64,000 nt of DNA from sequence record ON210137.1; one strand, given 5' to 3'. The stretch comes from Escherichia phage EC150. The number at the start of each line of letters is the position of its first letter. Position 1 is the first letter of the stretch. A model generated the notes under the pieces. It had not been told where the DNA came from, searched no databases, and was given only the letters and a program-made list of their open reading frames with translations. The translations under genes were made by a program, and so were the position numbers. This document shows positions 5,292 to 46,536 of the stretch, in pieces.

Positions 5292-5582
5292 ATGATTACT
5301 TTATCCGCTATCCGTTCCGCTCGCGTCGAGACTTCCGAAAACTCTAACGTATTTGGCGAAACCTTAGAGAGCGTTTATCTCTCTAACGTCGACGCGACTA
5401 TCGAATCTATTTATGAGCCGATCAACTTCCTCGACCTTTACAAGTATCGCGACGAGGACATCGTATCATCCCGCGTAACTATCAACGGCTTCGTCTATAC
5501 GATTACCGAAATCGGCGGCGAATATATCGCGGTCCCGCAACTCGGCGGCGAAGTAACTTATTTTAAAATCGTCTCCTTATAA
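5292..5582 (+). CDS. small acidic protein, paralog family member 2 (96 aa)
   Basis: ORF track; AGGAG Shine-Dalgarno; paralog of CDS 4374..4658. Confidence 0.6.
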   Translation: MITLSAIRSARVETSENSNVFGETLESVYLSNVDATIESIYEPINFLDLYKYRDEDIVSSRVTINGFVYTITEIGGEYIAVPQLGGEVTYFKIVSL

Positions 5583-5602
5583 TACCCTTCCGTTACTAAT
5601 AG

Positions 5603-5628
5603 GCCGCGCTTAGTCGCGGCTTTTCTTC
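5603..5628 (+). terminator. rho-independent terminator (GCCGCG-CTTAGT-CGCGGC then TTTTCTT)
   Basis: GC hairpin followed by T-tract, 20 nt after stop of CDS 5292..5582. Confidence 0.6.
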
Positions 5629-5746
5629 GTCCCTATCCCGATGCGCGTCTACGCGAAAACTCCTTTATCCTTCCCTTCGTCGTCGCATAATCTTCTTCGA
5701 GATGCTCCTTAGTTCGCATAACAGGTATTACGTTAAATGGAGAACA

Positions 5747-5945: not shown

Positions 5946-6008
5946 AATCATTCGCTTTCGAATCATTATGCTTCATATTGTTATGCGTCGAATCATTCGC
6001 TTTCGAAT
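5946..6008. repeat. 18-bp perfect direct repeat pair AATCATTCGCTTTCGAAT (5946-5963, 5991-6008)
   Basis: Read directly; non-coding region. Confidence 0.55.
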
Positions 6009-6096
6009 TGTAACGCTGGAAACTGTAACGGCGATTGATTATTGCGTTCGTGTGGTTTTTATGGCATGGGTCTTTTGGTGCGTTTTGGTACTTGAT

Positions 6097-6210
6097 GAAA
6101 TTTGCAGTACACTAATCAAAATACGACACATTTGGTCCACTAACTTTTCAAAGAAAAAGTCCTAGACAGTACCGTACTATTTTGTACCCACAGGAAATTT
6201 GCAGTACACT
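6097..6210. repeat. 17-bp perfect direct repeat pair GAAATTTGCAGTACACT (6097-6113, 6194-6210), related to the ATTTGCACTAT motif
   Basis: Read directly; shares ATTTGCA core with the 2.7-3.9 kb array. Confidence 0.55.
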
Positions 6211-10157: not shown

Positions 10158-10499
10158 TTAATTTCTTTTGAGAGGAATATGGCGGTTGCTGTCATTATTT
10201 GGTTTAATAATGAGCATAAAAACGATTAGAAAGATGATGGCTGATATACTTAATTCAATCAGCGCGGCTTGAGATATAGATTGATCTTCATGATACTGCT
10301 TTTGCATTTCTGCTTTCTTCTGAGCGCAAACTTCAGGTGATATGTAATCGCCTTTTGAGTTGCCATAATAAATCTCGCCATTCTCAGAAATAAGCCTGCC
10401 GCAAATATCCGTGTCAGCCTTTGCGCTTGACATCATAATAACGGTGCCGATGATAGCGGCAATTGTCCAGATTAGCAGTTGTGATAAGGTATTATTCAT
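10158..10499 (-). CDS. membrane-anchored exported protein (N-terminal signal peptide, C-terminal transmembrane helix)
   Basis: ORF track; hydrophobic N- and C-termini; AAAGAGG Shine-Dalgarno on minus strand. Confidence 0.5.
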   Translation of the reverse strand: MNNTLSQLLIWTIAAIIGTVIMMSSAKADTDICGRLISENGEIYYGNSKGDYISPEVCAQKKAEMQKQYHEDQSISQAALIELSISAIIFLIVFMLIIKPNNDSNRHIPLKRN

Positions 10500-10928: not shown

Positions 10929-11139
10929 TTTCTTTCCACTCCACGAATGTACTGCCACTTGTTTCTCTATTTAGCAGGTATCTGCCGCGCATTCCATGAA
11001 GGCTGAACTCAACCGTCGATGGATTAGATTTTGAAAGCCACATCACTTGACCGTCGAATGGTCCGCCGATGCATGTGTATTTGGCCTTTGGCTCACTCCT
11101 TTTGGGTCGCTTTGCCCGCTCTTTGATTGATAGTCTCAT
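10918..11139 (-). CDS. hypothetical small basic protein (73 aa)
   Basis: ORF track. Confidence 0.35.
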   Translation of the reverse strand: MRLSIKERAKRPKRSEPKAKYTCIGGPFDGQVMWLSKSNPSTVEFSLHGMRGRYLLNRETSGSTFVEWKENGK

Positions 11140-11354
11140 CAGTCTTCACCTTGAGATTCAAGACAAGTAAGGACAAGCCACGTCATCGGAAGAATCAAAA
11201 CCAGAGAAATAAGTGACCAAATGGACCAACACAAGATGACAGACTTGAATGTGTGAACGTCGCCAAACGTAGCAGTGAAACAAAATCCCATTACGAAAGC
11301 AATCGCTGTGGAGTGATTATCAATGGCTTTGATGGCGCGGTCGATGAGTTTCAT
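11139..11354 (-). CDS. small membrane protein with two predicted transmembrane helices (71 aa)
   Basis: ORF track; two hydrophobic stretches. Confidence 0.45.
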   Translation of the reverse strand: MKLIDRAIKAIDNHSTAIAFVMGFCFTATFGDVHTFKSVILCWSIWSLISLVLILPMTWLVLTCLESQGED

Positions 11355-39445: not shown

Positions 39446-40090
39446 ATGATTAATGCAAACGTAATATCTAAAGGGACCGGATGCAGCATGGATGTTGCAG
39501 AGAAATGGGTGGACCCTTTCAAGCAGGCTTGTGAGCACTACGGAATCAAAAGCAAGAATGCCATCGCGGCATTCCTTGCAAACGTAGGAGTAGAGACGGG
39601 CAGCTTGAAGACCTTTGTGGAAAATCTCAACTACTCTGCTCAAGGTCTTGCCAATACATGGCCTAGTCGTTACAGCGTCAGCGGTCGCTCTGGAAGTGCC
39701 CCGAACTCATTGGCCCTGTCGATTGCCCGTAAACCTGTGGAAATCGCCAATAATACATATGCAAACCGCATGGGCAACGGTTCAGTAGCATCTGGCGACG
39801 GTTGGAAGTACCGTGGCCGTGGTGCCATTCAGCTGACTGGAAAGGCCAACTATGCGGAATATACGCGTCAATCAGGCTATGATGCATTGAACAATCCTGA
39901 TATTCTGACTGAACCAAAATACATTGCTGACAGCGCGGCATGGTTCTTTAAGAATAGCGGCTGTATTCCTCTTGCGGATGCAGGAAATTTTGATTCAACC
40001 GTTAAGCGGATTAACGGGGCCGCGCCGAACGCAGCAAACCACGGTGAGTTGCGAAGAAAGCGTTACAAAGATGCACTAGCAGTTATGTAA
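39446..40090 (+). CDS. endolysin, glycoside hydrolase family 19-like
   Basis: Motifs AAFLANVGVETGSL and YRGRGAIQLTGKANY match GH19 chitinase/lysozyme catalytic region; last gene of late operon. Confidence 0.8.
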   Translation: MINANVISKGTGCSMDVAEKWVDPFKQACEHYGIKSKNAIAAFLANVGVETGSLKTFVENLNYSAQGLANTWPSRYSVSGRSGSAPNSLALSIARKPVEIANNTYANRMGNGSVASGDGWKYRGRGAIQLTGKANYAEYTRQSGYDALNNPDILTEPKYIADSAAWFFKNSGCIPLADAGNFDSTVKRINGAAPNAANHGELRRKRYKDALAVM

Positions 40091-40092
40091 GA

Positions 40093-40122
40093 AAAAGGCC
40101 CATATGGGCCTTTGTTTATTTT
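40093..40122. terminator. bidirectional rho-independent terminator (GGCCCA-TA-TGGGCC flanked by A-tract and T-tract)
   Basis: Perfect palindrome 40097-40110 with AAAAA upstream and TTTGTTTATTTT downstream; between convergent endolysin and minus-strand genes. Confidence 0.7.
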
Positions 40123-40328
40123 ACGGCTTCAACTTGGACGGGCGGAGCGGAACTTGTATCAATGTCTGGTAAGTCGAAATAATACCCCGCCATACCAATT
40201 GCACCCACAATCGCGGCCCGTGCCACCTTGCTGCTAATTGACTCCCCAATAAGCTTTACCAACAGGGATAAGATTTGAGACATCAAAGCCTTTTTCAGCC
40301 TTTTGTTTTCTTCCAAATCTTTCTGCAT
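40116..40328 (-). CDS. small membrane protein (one transmembrane helix), possible holin-like
   Basis: ORF track, internal Met start; hydrophobic AAIVGAIGMAGYYF; convergent with endolysin. Confidence 0.35.
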   Translation of the reverse strand: MQKDLEENKRLKKALMSQILSLLVKLIGESISSKVARAAIVGAIGMAGYYFDLPDIDTSSAPPVQVEAVK

Positions 40329-40342
40329 AACTACCACCCATG

Positions 40343-40885
40343 TCAACGCACTTCCTGTGTCTTAACATTACCTGAAGCATCTCTCAAGGGCAGTGGATAG
40401 TAGGCCATTTGGTAGTCTGATACGCCTTCAATGTGATAAAACACGATTACGTCTTTGCTGTTGATGAGCATGTTAACGATATCTGATTTATCTTCTGGAG
40501 TGAGTATTAGTGCGCCGCCTGTCCTGCTGTCTACTGCAACAGGGTATGTCTTGTCGACAAGGCCGCTGTCCAATGTATTATACCTGACAACGATTTCAGG
40601 GGCATCAACTTTTTCCATTGACATTCCGAACACAAACGACACGACCTGCCGACCGCGATCATTCATTACGCACATCTTTTCTTTGTCAAATCTTTCTTTT
40701 ATTGCGTCGTATTTATTCCAGCAAAACTCAAATGACTGCCCATTGTTGAAATATCTTGTCAAAACTTTTGCACTTCCATTCGGCGGCGTAAACATATTTT
40801 CAGCCGATGCAGTCTTGGTGAAGAATATAACTGTCAGCACAGCCATGATGATGATCAAAACAATCTTTAACTTGTTCGCTTTCAT
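40343..40885 (-). CDS. exported protein with N-terminal signal peptide (180 aa)
   Basis: N-terminal hydrophobic stretch then ASAEN (signal peptidase-like site). Confidence 0.5.
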   Translation of the reverse strand: MKANKLKIVLIIIMAVLTVIFFTKTASAENMFTPPNGSAKVLTRYFNNGQSFEFCWNKYDAIKERFDKEKMCVMNDRGRQVVSFVFGMSMEKVDAPEIVVRYNTLDSGLVDKTYPVAVDSRTGGALILTPEDKSDIVNMLINSKDVIVFYHIEGVSDYQMAYYPLPLRDASGNVKTQEVR

Positions 40886-40965: not shown

Positions 40966-40990
40966 AAAAGCCGGAAATTTCCGGCTTTAT
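40966..40990 (-). terminator. rho-independent terminator (AAAGCCGGAAATTTCCGGCTTT palindrome, T-tract on minus strand)
   Basis: Palindrome read directly; about 70 nt downstream of stop of CDS 41061..42038. Confidence 0.6.
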
Positions 40991-41060
40991 GTATACACTG
41001 TATATTAAATTCTAGAAAACGGCGCGATAGATTATACGCACCAATTATTTATCCAGTGTG

Positions 41061-42038
41061 TTAAAAATACTCCATATCGGTAATATCACGGAAGCATTTA
41101 TACAAGGCAGAGCGCGGCACGTCAACGATGCCAAAGTTGAAGAATTTATATGTCAGATACTTGTTGCGATAATTCTCGCGATTCTCCCAAAGCATTTTTC
41201 TCTCTGCCATAGGCATTGAACCAGCGGATACGCGGAAAGGAATCATTTCACCTTTCTCATCAACATATTTTGGATTGACAACCACAAATGATCCAAGGTA
41301 TCCTTTTGCAACTAAGCCTTCAGCCTCTTTCGAACGCTTAGTGCGACCCAACTCATCAATGAATGCTTCGTTGTTATTCTCCATCATCTCAACGAAGTCT
41401 ATGATCAGACCTTCTTCATCGGTCCACGGCTTGTCCTTCCACACATCACGTGACTTTGGCGTCGCGCGGCCATGCTTGTATTTGCCCGTCCAAGACTTGC
41501 CATACAAGCCTTCATAGCCAAGCTGGTCTGCTTCGATTTGCATCGCCGCGTACTGTTCCATATTTTCGATGTTTCGATATTCGAGAGCGCGAAGGAATGG
41601 GCGTCGACCATGGTTGAGGAGGTGCTGATTGACTTCAGCAACTCTAGCGCGATAGTTTGCATAACGCTTTTCAAAAGGCAAATCAGGGTCGCTGAAGTCA
41701 TCAAACACCCACCATGTAAAGTTAGTGATTGCATCAGTGTTCATGCATGCAGTATAGGCCTGTTGCATGACGTTCTTGTCGTTCGGATTACCGTCAATTA
41801 GCTCTCCATCAAGTCCGTGAATCAATTCACCCAAGAATAGGAACTCTTTTTTGATTTGAATATTGCGCAGCGCCATGCCGGACGTGCCCATTGGCAAGTT
41901 GTCATACGCCATCGCGCGTATGCCATCGACCTTGAAGGATAATCCGCAAGGCAGCGGCACATCTTCGCCGCGCTCGATGATTTGTTTACGCTGACAGCCT
42001 TTCATTGGTTTTAATGCTTTGATTTCTCCTGCCATCAC
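41061..42038 (-). CDS. ATP-dependent DNA ligase (putative)
   Basis: Nucleotidyltransferase motif I KVDGIR (KxDGxR) with downstream motif III-like FLGELIHGLDGELI. Confidence 0.55.
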   Translation of the reverse strand: MMAGEIKALKPMKGCQRKQIIERGEDVPLPCGLSFKVDGIRAMAYDNLPMGTSGMALRNIQIKKEFLFLGELIHGLDGELIDGNPNDKNVMQQAYTACMNTDAITNFTWWVFDDFSDPDLPFEKRYANYRARVAEVNQHLLNHGRRPFLRALEYRNIENMEQYAAMQIEADQLGYEGLYGKSWTGKYKHGRATPKSRDVWKDKPWTDEEGLIIDFVEMMENNNEAFIDELGRTKRSKEAEGLVAKGYLGSFVVVNPKYVDEKGEMIPFRVSAGSMPMAERKMLWENRENYRNKYLTYKFFNFGIVDVPRSALYKCFRDITDMEYF

Positions 42039-42628
42039 TCAAACTCCTTATTCATCACTTGTTCCAGCGCATAGGCATAAGCCTGATCAGTCGATTTGAT
42101 AAACGTTCCGTTGTACATCACACCTTTACGGTCCTTGATGTCTTCATAGGCGGCTTGAGCGCAATCAGACAGTCGAAGTCCATAATCATGTGCTACGCCG
42201 GAAAGATAATCGACTGCGCCCATGATGGTGACATCAATATCCATACTTTGATTTTTAGCAATGGCGTCACCAAGCCGTCCAAGAGTCTTTGCCAAGCGAA
42301 GGATAAACGAGTGAGGGTGAGCGCCTTTGTCAGCGCAACCGCCGCCGTTGATGTCTTCGATTTTTGCACCGTTTTGCGCGGCAAGAATAGTTAACACAAC
42401 AAGGCAATCGCCGATGTCATCCTTGATTGCGGATTGTAAATCACAGATGGCCTGCTCTGTATATCCGATTTCAGGGTCAAAGAACACAAGGTCATGTAAT
42501 TGATCAACGTGGTCGGTCAACTCCCCAAACTCGCTAATAAGCTTCGGGTATTGGTCCTTAAGGTCGCAGCCTTGGATGATGTTACGTTCAGAAGCCCACT
42601 GGCGAATGTTTGCATAAATCTGGTTCAT
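42035..42628 (-). CDS. MazG-like nucleotide pyrophosphohydrolase (putative)
   Basis: All-alpha protein with EFGELTDHVDQLHD and DIGDCLVVL acidic motifs reminiscent of MazG EExxE/D boxes. Confidence 0.45.
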   Translation of the reverse strand: MNQIYANIRQWASERNIIQGCDLKDQYPKLISEFGELTDHVDQLHDLVFFDPEIGYTEQAICDLQSAIKDDIGDCLVVLTILAAQNGAKIEDINGGGCADKGAHPHSFILRLAKTLGRLGDAIAKNQSMDIDVTIMGAVDYLSGVAHDYGLRLSDCAQAAYEDIKDRKGVMYNGTFIKSTDQAYAYALEQVMNKEFE

Positions 42629-43143
42629 TTATTTTCCTTTGATGCGTTGAATTGATCGATTTTAATTTTAGCCTGATTATAAGTATCAATCAAGCTATTA
42701 ACCTTCTCTTTTAATCGGTTTGTTTCTGCGGCGAACTGAACAAGAAATCTGACATCGTCTTCTGATAGTCCACAGTTTCCTTCTGGGATAGAGAGGCGTC
42801 CAGTGGTCGCAGAGTCGGGCACACTCCTGAGTAACTCACGGGAGCAGCTGAGTTGCTCGCGCAGCTTGATATTCCCAGACTTGTAACGAGCAATAGTGTC
42901 ATCAGCAACCAGTTGCGCTTCCTGGCGACCCTTCTCATATGCCGATGCCGATTCAACCTGTAAAGATGCAATTTGCTCTTCGAGTGCATTTATCTTGTCC
43001 TTACGCTCATTAAGCGATGTCAGATATTGATTATCCTTTGCCAGTGATGCGTTGGTTTGCTGCAGGTCTTCAACGTATGATCCAGCGGCAAACGCGCCAA
43101 CAAGGGCAAGAATCTTCAGGAGCGGTACAATTCTTTCTATCAT
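42625..43143 (-). CDS. Rz-like inner-membrane spanin (i-spanin, putative)
   Basis: N-terminal transmembrane helix IVPLLKILALVGAFAAGSYV then coiled-coil region; embedded alternative-frame lipoprotein ORF. Confidence 0.5.
   Translation of the reverse strand: MIERIVPLLKILALVGAFAAGSYVEDLQQTNASLAKDNQYLTSLNERKDKINALEEQIASLQVESASAYEKGRQEAQLVADDTIARYKSGNIKLREQLSCSRELLRSVPDSATTGRLSIPEGNCGLSEDDVRFLVQFAAETNRLKEKVNSLIDTYNQAKIKIDQFNASKENK
42711..42938 (-). CDS. Rz1-like outer-membrane lipoprotein spanin (o-spanin, putative), embedded in alternate frame
   Basis: Alternate-frame ORF inside CDS 42625..43143; signal MRRVARKRNWLLMTLLLVTSLGISS followed by Cys (lipobox-like ISSC). Confidence 0.4.
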   Translation of the reverse strand: MRRVARKRNWLLMTLLLVTSLGISSCASNSAAPVSYSGVCPTLRPLDASLSQKETVDYQKTMSDFLFSSPQKQTD

Positions 43144-43155
43144 GATGCACCAGAT

Positions 43156-43182
43156 AAATAAAAGGCCGCCAATCGGCAGCCT
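43156..43182 (-). terminator. rho-independent terminator on minus strand (GGCTGCC-GATT-GGCGGCC then TTTTATTTAT)
   Basis: Hairpin with one mismatch plus T-tract when read on the minus strand; downstream of CDS 43201..44061. Confidence 0.5.
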
Positions 43183-43200
43183 TGTTGATTTGATTGTCGA

Positions 43201-44061
43201 TTAAAACTCTTCTGCGTCGGTCGGAGTTTCATTGACAGGACCAGCGGCACCGCTTGCTTCTTCCTGCTTGCTGCGGTCAATGTTAACGTTGCCGCCAACT
43301 ACGTCGTTGTGGAATGCTTTGGCGACTTCGTACAAACCTTTGTCCTGCACCAGACCTTCCAGCTCAAACTTCAGAACTGACCATGTGTTGCCGTCTTTGG
43401 ACTGGGATGCAGTACCCATGCGAACGATGTTCATAAAGGTCGGCGGCGTTTTCAGACCCTGCGGAGTCTGAACTTTCTTCTGCTGCAGAGCGGTCATCAG
43501 CATGCGAGACGGCTTGATCATGGAAGAAGTCAGAGACAGCATTGCGCTACCAAATTCACCAGTTTCTTCGTTCAACAGAATCACAAAGTGGTTGCGTGTA
43601 TCTGCGTAGTAAGGCGATTTCTTCTCGTGCACCTTGCCGTTTTCGTCCGGCACGAATACCTTACCGTTGATCTCAACAGCGCGGCCTGCCGCGACTTCTG
43701 CATCAACGTGCTCTTTGGTGAATTCACCTTTAAAGCCTTTATCGTCGGACTCGCGACCGCCCCAAAGGATGAAGGTGCGTTTGAATGCGCAAGGGATGAT
43801 CTGCACGCCTTTCTTACCGTCATACAACTCACCAGTAACGGTGTTGTAAAGCATTCCGGCTTTTGCGCCAGGAACGTGTTTTGGATCATCTTCGTCGACC
43901 ATAGGAGACATCTTCTGCAGGACGACGATAAAAGGAATGGCATACGCATCGGCATCGGCACCTTCAAAACCAGCGCCAAAATCGGTCATGTCGACAAAAT
44001 CAGCCATAGCGGACATCTGGGTGTTTTTCACTGCAACTTCGGTAGTTTCTTTCTTAGACAT
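43201..44061 (-). CDS. putative single-stranded DNA-binding protein (acidic C-terminal tail ending in Phe)
   Basis: 286 aa; C-terminus ...ETPTDAEEF resembles acidic tails of SSB/T7 gp2.5-type proteins; replication module context. Confidence 0.35.
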   Translation of the reverse strand: MSKKETTEVAVKNTQMSAMADFVDMTDFGAGFEGADADAYAIPFIVVLQKMSPMVDEDDPKHVPGAKAGMLYNTVTGELYDGKKGVQIIPCAFKRTFILWGGRESDDKGFKGEFTKEHVDAEVAAGRAVEINGKVFVPDENGKVHEKKSPYYADTRNHFVILLNEETGEFGSAMLSLTSSMIKPSRMLMTALQQKKVQTPQGLKTPPTFMNIVRMGTASQSKDGNTWSVLKFELEGLVQDKGLYEVAKAFHNDVVGGNVNIDRSKQEEASGAAGPVNETPTDAEEF

Positions 44062-45012: not shown

Positions 45013-46536
45013 TTAATTCATCTTTTTGCCGTCGAGGATGTGATCAGCAAGCATAGATTTCATGCTCAGTGAACGCTGAATTTCTTCGTCGATGGTATCA
45101 ACGCCAATAAAATCAACATACAACACGCTTGATTTGGTGCCGATGCGGTGATTTCGGTCTTCGGATTGTTTGCGCAGCTCGTTGTCGTAGTTGCAAGAAT
45201 AATAAATTGCCAAGTCAGCGGCGGTAAGCGTGATTCCGATGCCTGCCGCTGCAGCGTGACAAACCAAGACTTGCGTTCCACCGTTCTCGACTGTGTTTTT
45301 CTGGAAGTCATCAATCAAGAACTCGCGCTGCTCTTTTGACGTCTCACCGTTATATACACCAGTGACCACGCCTTCAGACTCAAGCCAATCCTTAATCTGG
45401 TTCATCTCTTCCTTAAAGATGGCCCAAACGATGAATTTGCGCTCTGGGTCGTCTTCCAGCACCCCTTCCACATAATCCTTAAAGGCCGTGAATCGTGGGT
45501 TGTCTTCCATGTAAACCATCTCATCATACACCTTAACAAAGCCTGATGTCACCTGCTTCATCTTAGTGCGCGACGCGATCATCTCAAACTTGACGTTTTC
45601 TTCTTCGCCCTTGTATTCCATCAAATAGTTGTACTCATTCTTGAGTTCATCGTAAACATCACGTTGTTTAGGCGACAACTCGAAGTCAATAAACTTGTAC
45701 ACCTTCTCTGGAAGGTCAGGCAAGTATTCTGCTTTTGTTGCACGAAAATAGTGCGGTTCCATCAGCCGGATAAGCTTGTCAAGGTTTTTGTACATCGGTC
45801 GGCCAAACTGGTCTTTGCGCGGCACTTGCGGAATCCCATAGCCATTGCCGCCGATTTTCTTGAGGATGGCTTGCATCTCTGGGTCGTGCGCTTCAAGCAG
45901 CACTGTAAATTCAGAGTTAAAGGCACGGAATGATTTAGTGCCGAGCAATCCTGCTTCAAGGAAGTGGTATTGCATGTAAATATCCGCAGGCGAGCGCGGC
46001 AACGGCGTGCCAGAAAGGATTCGACGGGCCTTTGCCAGCCGTCCCAATTCCACAACCTTGATGGAGCGTTTGGCTGTGTTATTCTTGATGCGCGTTGATT
46101 CGTCGATGATCATCAGGCAGCGGTACTTCTTCAAGACCGACTCGATGTGTTGATAACCGACTGGTGTGTTGACAGTGTCGATGTTGAATGAGAAGATGCG
46201 CGCAGGCACTTCGCCTTCGGGGTAGTGATCAGCAAACATCTTCTCCCAAAGCGCCTTGCCCTTTTTAGTTTTCATCTTATCGTTGCCGCGCCAGTAGTGT
46301 CCAATCCACTTGATGGAAAGGTGCTCTGGTGCTTCACGACGAATCCAGTTTGAGTGGACACCGTTTGGAGCGATGACGACCATGGCATCGAACGCGCCAG
46401 CGGCGAAGTGCTTTTCAAACTCTGCCAAAGCGGTCCAAGTTTTACCAAGACCCTGTTCCATGAAATAGGCAAAGTATTTTCTGCGGCCTGCTTTATCAAG
46501 CGCCAGAAGCTGGTGGCGCATCCCTTGTGTTTTCAT
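45013..46536 (-). CDS. SNF2-family (DEAD/DEAH-like) helicase
   Basis: Walker A EQGLGKT, DExx box MIIDESTRIKN, helicase C-terminal region. Confidence 0.75.
   Translation of the reverse strand: MKTQGMRHQLLALDKAGRRKYFAYFMEQGLGKTWTALAEFEKHFAAGAFDAMVVIAPNGVHSNWIRREAPEHLSIKWIGHYWRGNDKMKTKKGKALWEKMFADHYPEGEVPARIFSFNIDTVNTPVGYQHIESVLKKYRCLMIIDESTRIKNNTAKRSIKVVELGRLAKARRILSGTPLPRSPADIYMQYHFLEAGLLGTKSFRAFNSEFTVLLEAHDPEMQAILKKIGGNGYGIPQVPRKDQFGRPMYKNLDKLIRLMEPHYFRATKAEYLPDLPEKVYKFIDFELSPKQRDVYDELKNEYNYLMEYKGEEENVKFEMIASRTKMKQVTSGFVKVYDEMVYMEDNPRFTAFKDYVEGVLEDDPERKFIVWAIFKEEMNQIKDWLESEGVVTGVYNGETSKEQREFLIDDFQKNTVENGGTQVLVCHAAAAGIGITLTAADLAIYYSCNYDNELRKQSEDRNHRIGTKSSVLYVDFIGVDTIDEEIQRSLSMKSMLADHILDGKKMN

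Follow-up and report, generated by a model that had tools for sequence, protein, structure and literature searches.

The 64-kb window analysed here (the whole stretch of 64,000 nucleotides from Escherichia phage EC150, ON210137.1, to which all coordinates refer) raises the question whether two nested reading frames on its minus strand, lying apart from the endolysin gene, form a spanin pair of the lambda Rz/Rz1 type, and whether such a placement is out of the ordinary. An earlier note on this DNA had proposed such a pair, with an i-spanin encoded at 42625..43143 and an o-spanin encoded by a smaller ORF (42711..42938) in another frame of the same gene. We are highly confident that the locus encodes a two-component spanin with the embedded lambda Rz/Rz1 architecture, in a Wifcevirus-type myophage of E. 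coli, with a presumed role at the outer membrane during lysis. The proposed lambda-type reading of the two genes is borne out by the PHROG family, by embedded homologues in distant phages, by the dual-coding constraint and by profile alignments with the lambda proteins. The features of the pair itself are as follows.

42625..43143, minus strand: i-spanin gene, 172 aa (from the ORF list; PHROG 1327; relatives annotated as i-spanin or Rz-like spanin)
43075..43131, minus strand: predicted transmembrane anchor of the i-spanin, codons 5-23, IVPLLKILALVGAFAAGSY (Kyte-Doolittle maxima)
42711..42989, minus strand: o-spanin ORF, 92 aa from ATG 42989 or 75 aa from ATG 42938 (reading frame, conservation, homologues)
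42861..42872, minus strand: lipobox codons I-S-S-C, ATA TCA AGC TGC (read from the sequence)
42998..43002, minus strand: AAGGA, a Shine-Dalgarno-like motif 8 nt 5' of ATG 42989, within the i-spanin frame

The outer gene product is predicted to sit in the inner membrane in type II orientation, through one transmembrane domain at its N terminus. Judged by hydropathy, its sole strongly hydrophobic stretch is the N terminus (roughly residues 1-23), which is where the earlier note had placed a transmembrane helix: the KD15 maximum (2.33) starts at residue 5, and the KD19 maximum covers residues 1-19. Outside this stretch the protein is highly charged (30% D, E, K and R). The AlphaFold2 model was built from the single sequence and is of moderate confidence because its mean pLDDT is 71.5 (70-85 over the helices, below 50 for residues 1-23); it has helices at residues 5-88, 94-114 and 128-170, with residues 115-127 non-helical. 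The overall layout is thus an N-terminal transmembrane helix, a long helix, Cys100, a linker with Cys124 and a second helix. The coiled-coil body proposed earlier agrees with this mostly helical model, and one coiled-coil segment is listed for the i-spanin orthologue of phage ECML-117 in the supplement of Kongari et al. 2018 (PMC6139136). In the model the periplasmic domain is largely alpha-helical with a linker, as expected of a two-component spanin. The protein matches PHROG 1327 (Rz-like spanin) over essentially its full length (E 2.7e-26, 93.3 bits), with i-spanin residues 6-160 aligned to positions 9-156 of the 158-position profile.

The close relatives of this locus all belong to one genus. 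The 2.1 kb around the pair has almost full-length matches, 94-97% identical at the nucleotide level, in 28 phage records of GenBank, all of them from Wifcevirus myophages of E. coli or Shigella (including WFH, WFC, ECML-117, FEC19, Mansfield and Bas98-101), and because it matches only Wifcevirus myophages the window can be assigned to this known genus. A scan of IMG/VR with the i-spanin returned four near-identical Wifcevirus contigs only, and no new diversity. More distant relatives of the i-spanin (27-37% identity) are encoded by the Yersinia phages PY54/P840 and P744, the Pantoea phages LIET2/Nafs113 and the Burkholderia phage Mica. In P840, P744, Nafs113 and Mica an out-of-frame lipoprotein ORF is embedded at the equivalent place, and its product is 40-50% identical to the o-spanin of EC150. 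An alignment of the o-spanins of five families has an invariant lipobox Cys, Cys-Pro and F-L-F, and a conserved D-[YF] position.

Neither protein of EC150 matches the Pfam models of the lambda proteins, PF03245 (Phage_lysis, Rz) and PF06085 (Rz1), even at E-values up to 10. This makes the pair a distant relative or an analogue that falls outside these models as drawn, and for the same reason the link to Rz/Rz1 was made through the homologues and hhalign. PF03245 does match the homologues in Mica (6e-17, 62.4 bits) and P744 (5e-10, 40.0 bits), both above the cut-off, and the Nafs113 homologue scores just under it (5e-5, 23.9 bits; cut-off 25.4). The hhalign comparisons, which use shallow profiles of 5 sequences and give moderate probabilities, align the i-spanin with lambda Rz (73% probability; Cys100 to Rz Cys99) and the o-spanin with lambda Rz1 (91% probability; Cys43 and Cys57 to Rz1 Cys20, which carries the lipid in lambda, and Cys29).

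The i-spanin gene contains the whole of the o-spanin ORF in its +1 frame (the offset is 154 nt, and 154 mod 3 = 1), with the inner stop codon (42711..42713) 86 nt inside the end of the outer gene. The frame is free of stops over the 42711..42938 ORF of the earlier note, and it is open further up to 42989, so that ATG 42938, the start chosen in that note, is codon 18 of a 92-codon frame. In the encoded signal a basic part (MRRVARKRNW) is followed by a hydrophobic one (LLMTLLLVTSLG) and then by the lipobox ISS/C and A-S (the slash marks the predicted cut). The sequence across this point reads ...MRRVARKRNWLLMTLLLVTSLGISS/CASNS..., with Cys43 at the cut, Ala at +2, and a mature part of 50 aa that includes Cys57. 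The lipobox-like ISSC and the short peptide with a second Cys described earlier are therefore both present. The lipoprotein signal was judged by a regular expression and hydropathy only, and Cys43 is predicted to be the lipid-modified first residue of the mature o-spanin. The match of the o-spanin to PHROG 4306 (Rz-like spanin) is weak (E 9.4e-4).

Is the embedded ORF a gene at all? It might be that the outer gene alone is real, that the embedded ORF is an untranslated by-product of its composition, and that the outer protein acts solo or in something unrelated to lysis. The length of the ORF is no argument against this: an open +1 frame of at least 92 codons arose in 618 out of 5000 synonymous reshuffles of the outer gene (12%), and ORF length was rejected as evidence for the embedded gene. 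Because the frame length is not rare, we relied on the lipoprotein signal and on conservation. A lipoprotein-type signal in the +1 frame was seen in just three of the 5000 synonymous reshuffles and in none of 5000 codon-order shuffles. The frame is open in all 14 distinct Wifcevirus sequences, in which the two ATGs and the two cysteines are likewise conserved; the lipobox is ISSC in all but two of the 14, which have MSSC. The third positions of the outer frame point the same way: 7 out of 93 vary in the overlap (0.075), as compared with 17 out of 80 in the rest of the gene (0.21; Fisher p 0.014) and 205 out of 485 in the flanking genes (0.36 and 0.52; Fisher p 5e-12). Such a drop limited to the overlap is what selection on the inner frame would be expected to leave, since here the silent third positions of the outer codons coincide with second positions of the inner ones. 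Across the distant phages, too, the inner protein is better conserved than the outer one (by the identities given above); its lipobox Cys does not vary there, and neither does its second Cys. As would be expected of a spurious ORF, Pfam gives no match to the inner protein, and most GenBank records of the genus leave the inner ORF unannotated; however, unannotated embedded o-spanins reflect a documented bias of gene callers (Kongari et al. 2018, PMC6139136). We consider a real outer gene with a spurious inner ORF extremely unlikely. The embedded ORF is a real gene, with purifying selection on both frames, as read from these sequence comparisons.

Where translation of the o-spanin begins is ambiguous, the candidates being ATG 42989 and ATG 42938. 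ATG 42989 has a good AAGGA motif, yet it gives an unusually long and highly basic signal of 42 residues; the record of phage Mansfield has a ribosome-binding site marked at the place equivalent to this motif. ATG 42938, which lines up with Met1 of lambda Rz1, gives a normal signal of 25 residues but is preceded by no Shine-Dalgarno motif. Both starts lead to the identical mature lipoprotein.

The genomic context of the pair is made up of the following features.

43162..43183, minus strand: intrinsic-terminator hairpin between a Pam3 gp34-like gene and the i-spanin ATG (hairpin search)
42035..42628, minus strand: MazG-like pyrophosphatase gene, its ATG overlapping the i-spanin stop (ATGA)
41061..42038, minus strand: ATP-dependent DNA ligase gene, its start overlapping the MazG stop (GTGA); the last gene before the next terminator
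40967..40988, minus strand: terminator hairpin 3' of the ligase gene (-13.6 kcal/mol; a terminator is annotated in Mansfield)
40116..40346 and 40343..40885, minus strand: two small ORFs between the endolysin and ligase genes
39446..40090, plus strand: GH19-type endolysin gene, the partner lysis gene (Pfam PF00182, PHROG 181)

The endolysin assignment is supported by Pfam Glyco_hydro_19 (32.5 bits; cut-off 25.5) and by the PHROG 181 endolysin family (E 3.9e-70). The gap between this gene and the i-spanin gene is 2535 bp and the two are on opposite strands (endolysin plus, pair minus), which is what the earlier note had given as about 2.5 kb. That note had also named ligase and MazG-like genes as lying in between; both are there, together with the two further small ORFs listed above, which it did not mention. 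Its placement of the pair in the replication-strand operon with a terminator upstream holds as well, as the helicase and DNA polymerase III alpha genes share the strand of the pair, and the hairpin at 43162..43183 has a 9-bp stem with 6 G-C pairs (-15.9 kcal/mol) followed by the T-rich UUUAUUUAU. This terminator is annotated in Mansfield, and in WFH it is among the features listed beneath the match.

From the two terminators and the gene overlaps it follows that the pair opens, as first cistron, a unit of three genes (or four if the embedded one is counted) with a terminator on either side. The pair is probably co-transcribed with the MazG and ligase genes, with translational coupling, judging by the order and overlap of the genes. 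The upstream terminator ends 18 nt 5' of the i-spanin ATG. No sigma-70 promoter was found between this terminator and the i-spanin start, and 18 nt is too short for one; since no promoter fits there, read-through is the simplest inference, and the pair is probably expressed through read-through of the upstream terminator.

The anatomy of the genes, the sorting signals, the homology, the purifying selection on both frames and the terminators are shown by the analysis. A role in lysis is what we infer for the pair, along with the lipid modification, the membrane locations, the complex formation, and the mode and timing of transcription. The N-terminal helix would fix the i-spanin to the inner membrane, and the long helical domain of the protein would be in the periplasm. 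The o-spanin would be translated in the +1 frame from a separate start, lipid-modified at Cys43 and cut by signal peptidase II, and it would then go to the outer membrane, because it has Ala and not Asp at +2. By analogy with lambda, the C-terminal ends of the two proteins would bind each other across the periplasm, and each protein may form disulfide-linked homodimers. In lambda the homodimer disulfides are formed by Rz Cys99 and Rz1 Cys29. The review sections of PMC6139136 agree with this. The periplasmic cysteines available in EC150 for such putative homotypic bonds are Cys100 and Cys124 of the i-spanin (either of which could serve) and Cys57 of the o-spanin. After the GH19 endolysin has cleared the peptidoglycan, the complex would disrupt or fuse the outer membrane and so complete lysis.

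It could also be argued that the pair is a true spanin homologue that is now a relic or has another role in the envelope, with the outer membrane disrupted by some other product, e.g. a unimolecular spanin or disruptin-like peptide from another locus. The pair is indeed not part of a lysis cluster, it follows a terminator and it is coupled to nucleotide-metabolism genes, and the window (64 kb) is shorter than the genomes of the relatives (67-72 kb), so that a few kb would be outside it. However, unlinked functional spanins are established, as for pseT.3/pseT.2 of T4 (Kongari et al. 2018, PMC6139136), and the purifying selection on both frames extends across the genus. A search of the window for a holin or a second spanin gave no convincing candidate: two membrane-protein-like ORFs (10158..10499 and 11139..11354, both on the minus strand) have no PHROG family and were rejected. 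The embedded o-spanin is the only ORF of the window with a credible lipobox and lipoprotein signal, and the other lipobox matches, which are out-of-frame ORFs inside larger genes, were discarded. We regard a non-lytic pair as very unlikely, and a spanin pair acting in lysis as the preferred reading. Our literature search found no published experiments on Wifcevirus spanins, and the genome announcement of Mansfield makes no mention of lysis genes.

A further idea about the regulation of the pair is that the two o-spanin starts give slow- and fast-exported forms, in the manner of S107/S105 of lambda, and that the dose is set by read-through of the terminator. It is based only on the conservation of both ATGs and on where the terminator lies, and we think it unlikely. 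If true, dual starts together with read-through dosing would be an undescribed way of regulating spanin supply, the dosing being exerted by a terminator 18 nt 5' of the i-spanin start, in an early or middle replication operon.

The embedded o-spanin has been missed in most deposited Wifcevirus genomes, and in several records both genes are called hypothetical; the call made in the earlier note is therefore a sound annotation fix. Beyond correct annotation it means little. The location of the spanin genes is useful to phage engineering and therapy, e.g. for lysis-defective or lysis-timing variants.

The earlier note had further implied that the placement of the pair is unusual, and this does not hold, as the identical arrangement is recorded for ECML-117 and annotated in Mansfield and Bas98-101, and T4-like phages provide a precedent. 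The census of Kongari et al. 2018 (PMC6139136) lists the ECML-117 pair (JX128258) as EIS/EOS, 'emb', on strand -1, with the i-spanin at 45375..45894 and the o-spanin at 45461..45689 (75 aa). It is the same gene pair as in EC150: the i-spanins are 99.4% identical, the outer gene has 519 nt and is on the minus strand, the inner gene is embedded, and the o-spanin start in the census is the 75-aa start of the earlier note. ECML-117, Mansfield and Bas98-101 also have the same neighbours (the Pam3 gp34-like gene, the terminator, MazG and ligase), and they differ from EC150 by a few amino-acid substitutions only. In Mansfield (MK903282) gp57 is annotated as the i-spanin and gp58 as the o-spanin, in its 92-aa form; i-spanin and o-spanin are likewise annotated in the Bas98-101 records, and in RefSeq the outer gene is named "Rz-like spanin". 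The o-spanin start annotated in Mansfield and Bas98-101 is 17 codons earlier (92 aa) than that of the census.

Further afield, both proteins have homologues in PY54/P840, P744, Nafs113/LIET2 and Mica, with the o-spanin at the same relative position, but the genomic contexts differ: in P840 and Mica the pair is part of a classical holin-endolysin-spanin cassette, whereas in P744 and Nafs113 it is found among unrelated genes, as in EC150. The pair shares with lambda Rz/Rz1 a small lipoprotein embedded in the +1 frame of an outer protein with a TM anchor at the N terminus and a helical domain in the periplasm, and the D-[YFW]-Q motif is common to both o-spanins. It differs from Rz/Rz1 in several respects: neither Pfam nor BLAST matches them directly; the mature o-spanin of EC150 has 50 aa with 4 prolines, whereas that of lambda has 40 aa and is proline-rich; and the second Cys of the i-spanin is in the linker (Cys124), whereas that of Rz is at the C terminus. 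There is also no S-R-Rz cassette in EC150 (the lambda R protein is a transglycosylase), the pair being grouped with MazG and ligase and lying 2.5 kb from a GH19 endolysin gene on the opposite strand. With pseT.3/pseT.2 of T4 it shares the position of a two-component spanin apart from the holin and endolysin genes (PMC6139136, Fig. 8 legend), but the architecture is separated in T4 and embedded in EC150. Lysis genes are unclustered in T4-like phages (Kongari et al. 2018, PMC6139136), and large lytic phages are known to have them in separate places. The embedded pair and its distance from the endolysin gene are thus already known, and the pair of EC150 is an ordinary, catalogued one.

The spanin pair (i-spanin gene with an o-spanin ORF embedded in it) forms, together with the genes for MazG and ligase, a compact unit at window 40967..43183 (-), in which stop and start codons overlap (ATGA, GTGA). 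Two strong hairpin terminators flank this unit, one on each side, and the space behind the first is too short for a promoter. Just upstream of the first terminator lies a gene matching both Pfam and PHROG 2402 (unknown function):

43201..44061, (-), Pam3 phage gp34-like gene (Pfam PF23977, E 4e-86)

Its product, a conserved protein of unknown role, is included in the replication block. No recognisable holin adjoins the GH19 endolysin gene (window 39446..40090 (+)). Small genes near it, and ORFs elsewhere in the window with predicted membrane segments, are:

40116..40885, (-), two small genes, just downstream of the endolysin gene and convergent with it
10158..10499, (-), ORF with predicted membrane segment(s), without PHROG family
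11139..11354, (-), ORF with predicted membrane segment(s), without PHROG family

One of the two small genes encodes a 76-aa protein of PHROG 5165 (unknown function), and the other a 180-aa protein without family, for which an N-terminal signal or anchor is predicted.

Two in-frame ATGs, both conserved, are candidate starts of the embedded o-spanin (window 42938..42989 (-)): the downstream one, giving a 75-aa protein, was chosen in the published census (Kongari et al. 2018, PMC6139136), and the upstream one, giving 92 aa, in the records of the related phages Mansfield and Bas98-101. An AAGGA is found 8 nt before the upstream ATG. The 17 additional residues of the longer form are very basic (MHSKSKLHLYRLNRHRH), and this extension is kept throughout the genus with three substitutions.

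The record of Pantoea phage Nafs113 (OK570186) labels ORF67, a separate lipoprotein upstream (signal ...AALSVG|C), as 'putative o-spanin'. We found an unannotated ORF embedded inside the i-spanin gene of this phage, matching PHROG 3198 (Rz-like spanin); ORF67 matched no PHROG family. Nafs113 therefore has two lipoprotein candidates beside one i-spanin, at these sites of its record:

5467..5733, lipoprotein candidate
5993..6187, lipoprotein candidate

The embedded ORF, not ORF67, is the true homologue (45% identity) of the embedded o-spanins of Wifcevirus, the PY54-like phages and Burkholderia phage Mica.

The spanins of ECML-117 (a Wifcevirus phage) and PY54 are listed as unrelated singletons by Kongari et al. 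2018 (PMC6139136). The window pair (42625..43143) was compared with those of Yersinia phages P840 and P744. The window i-spanin matches that of PY54 itself (tblastn, E 4e-13), with the same span and identity as its match to the i-spanin of Yersinia phage P840 (PY54-like), the phage used for the o-spanin comparison, whose embedded o-spanin is 50% identical to that of the window. By these two similarities, the window/ECML-117-type and PY54-type spanins belong to one wider family, with Mica and LIET2/Nafs113 included.
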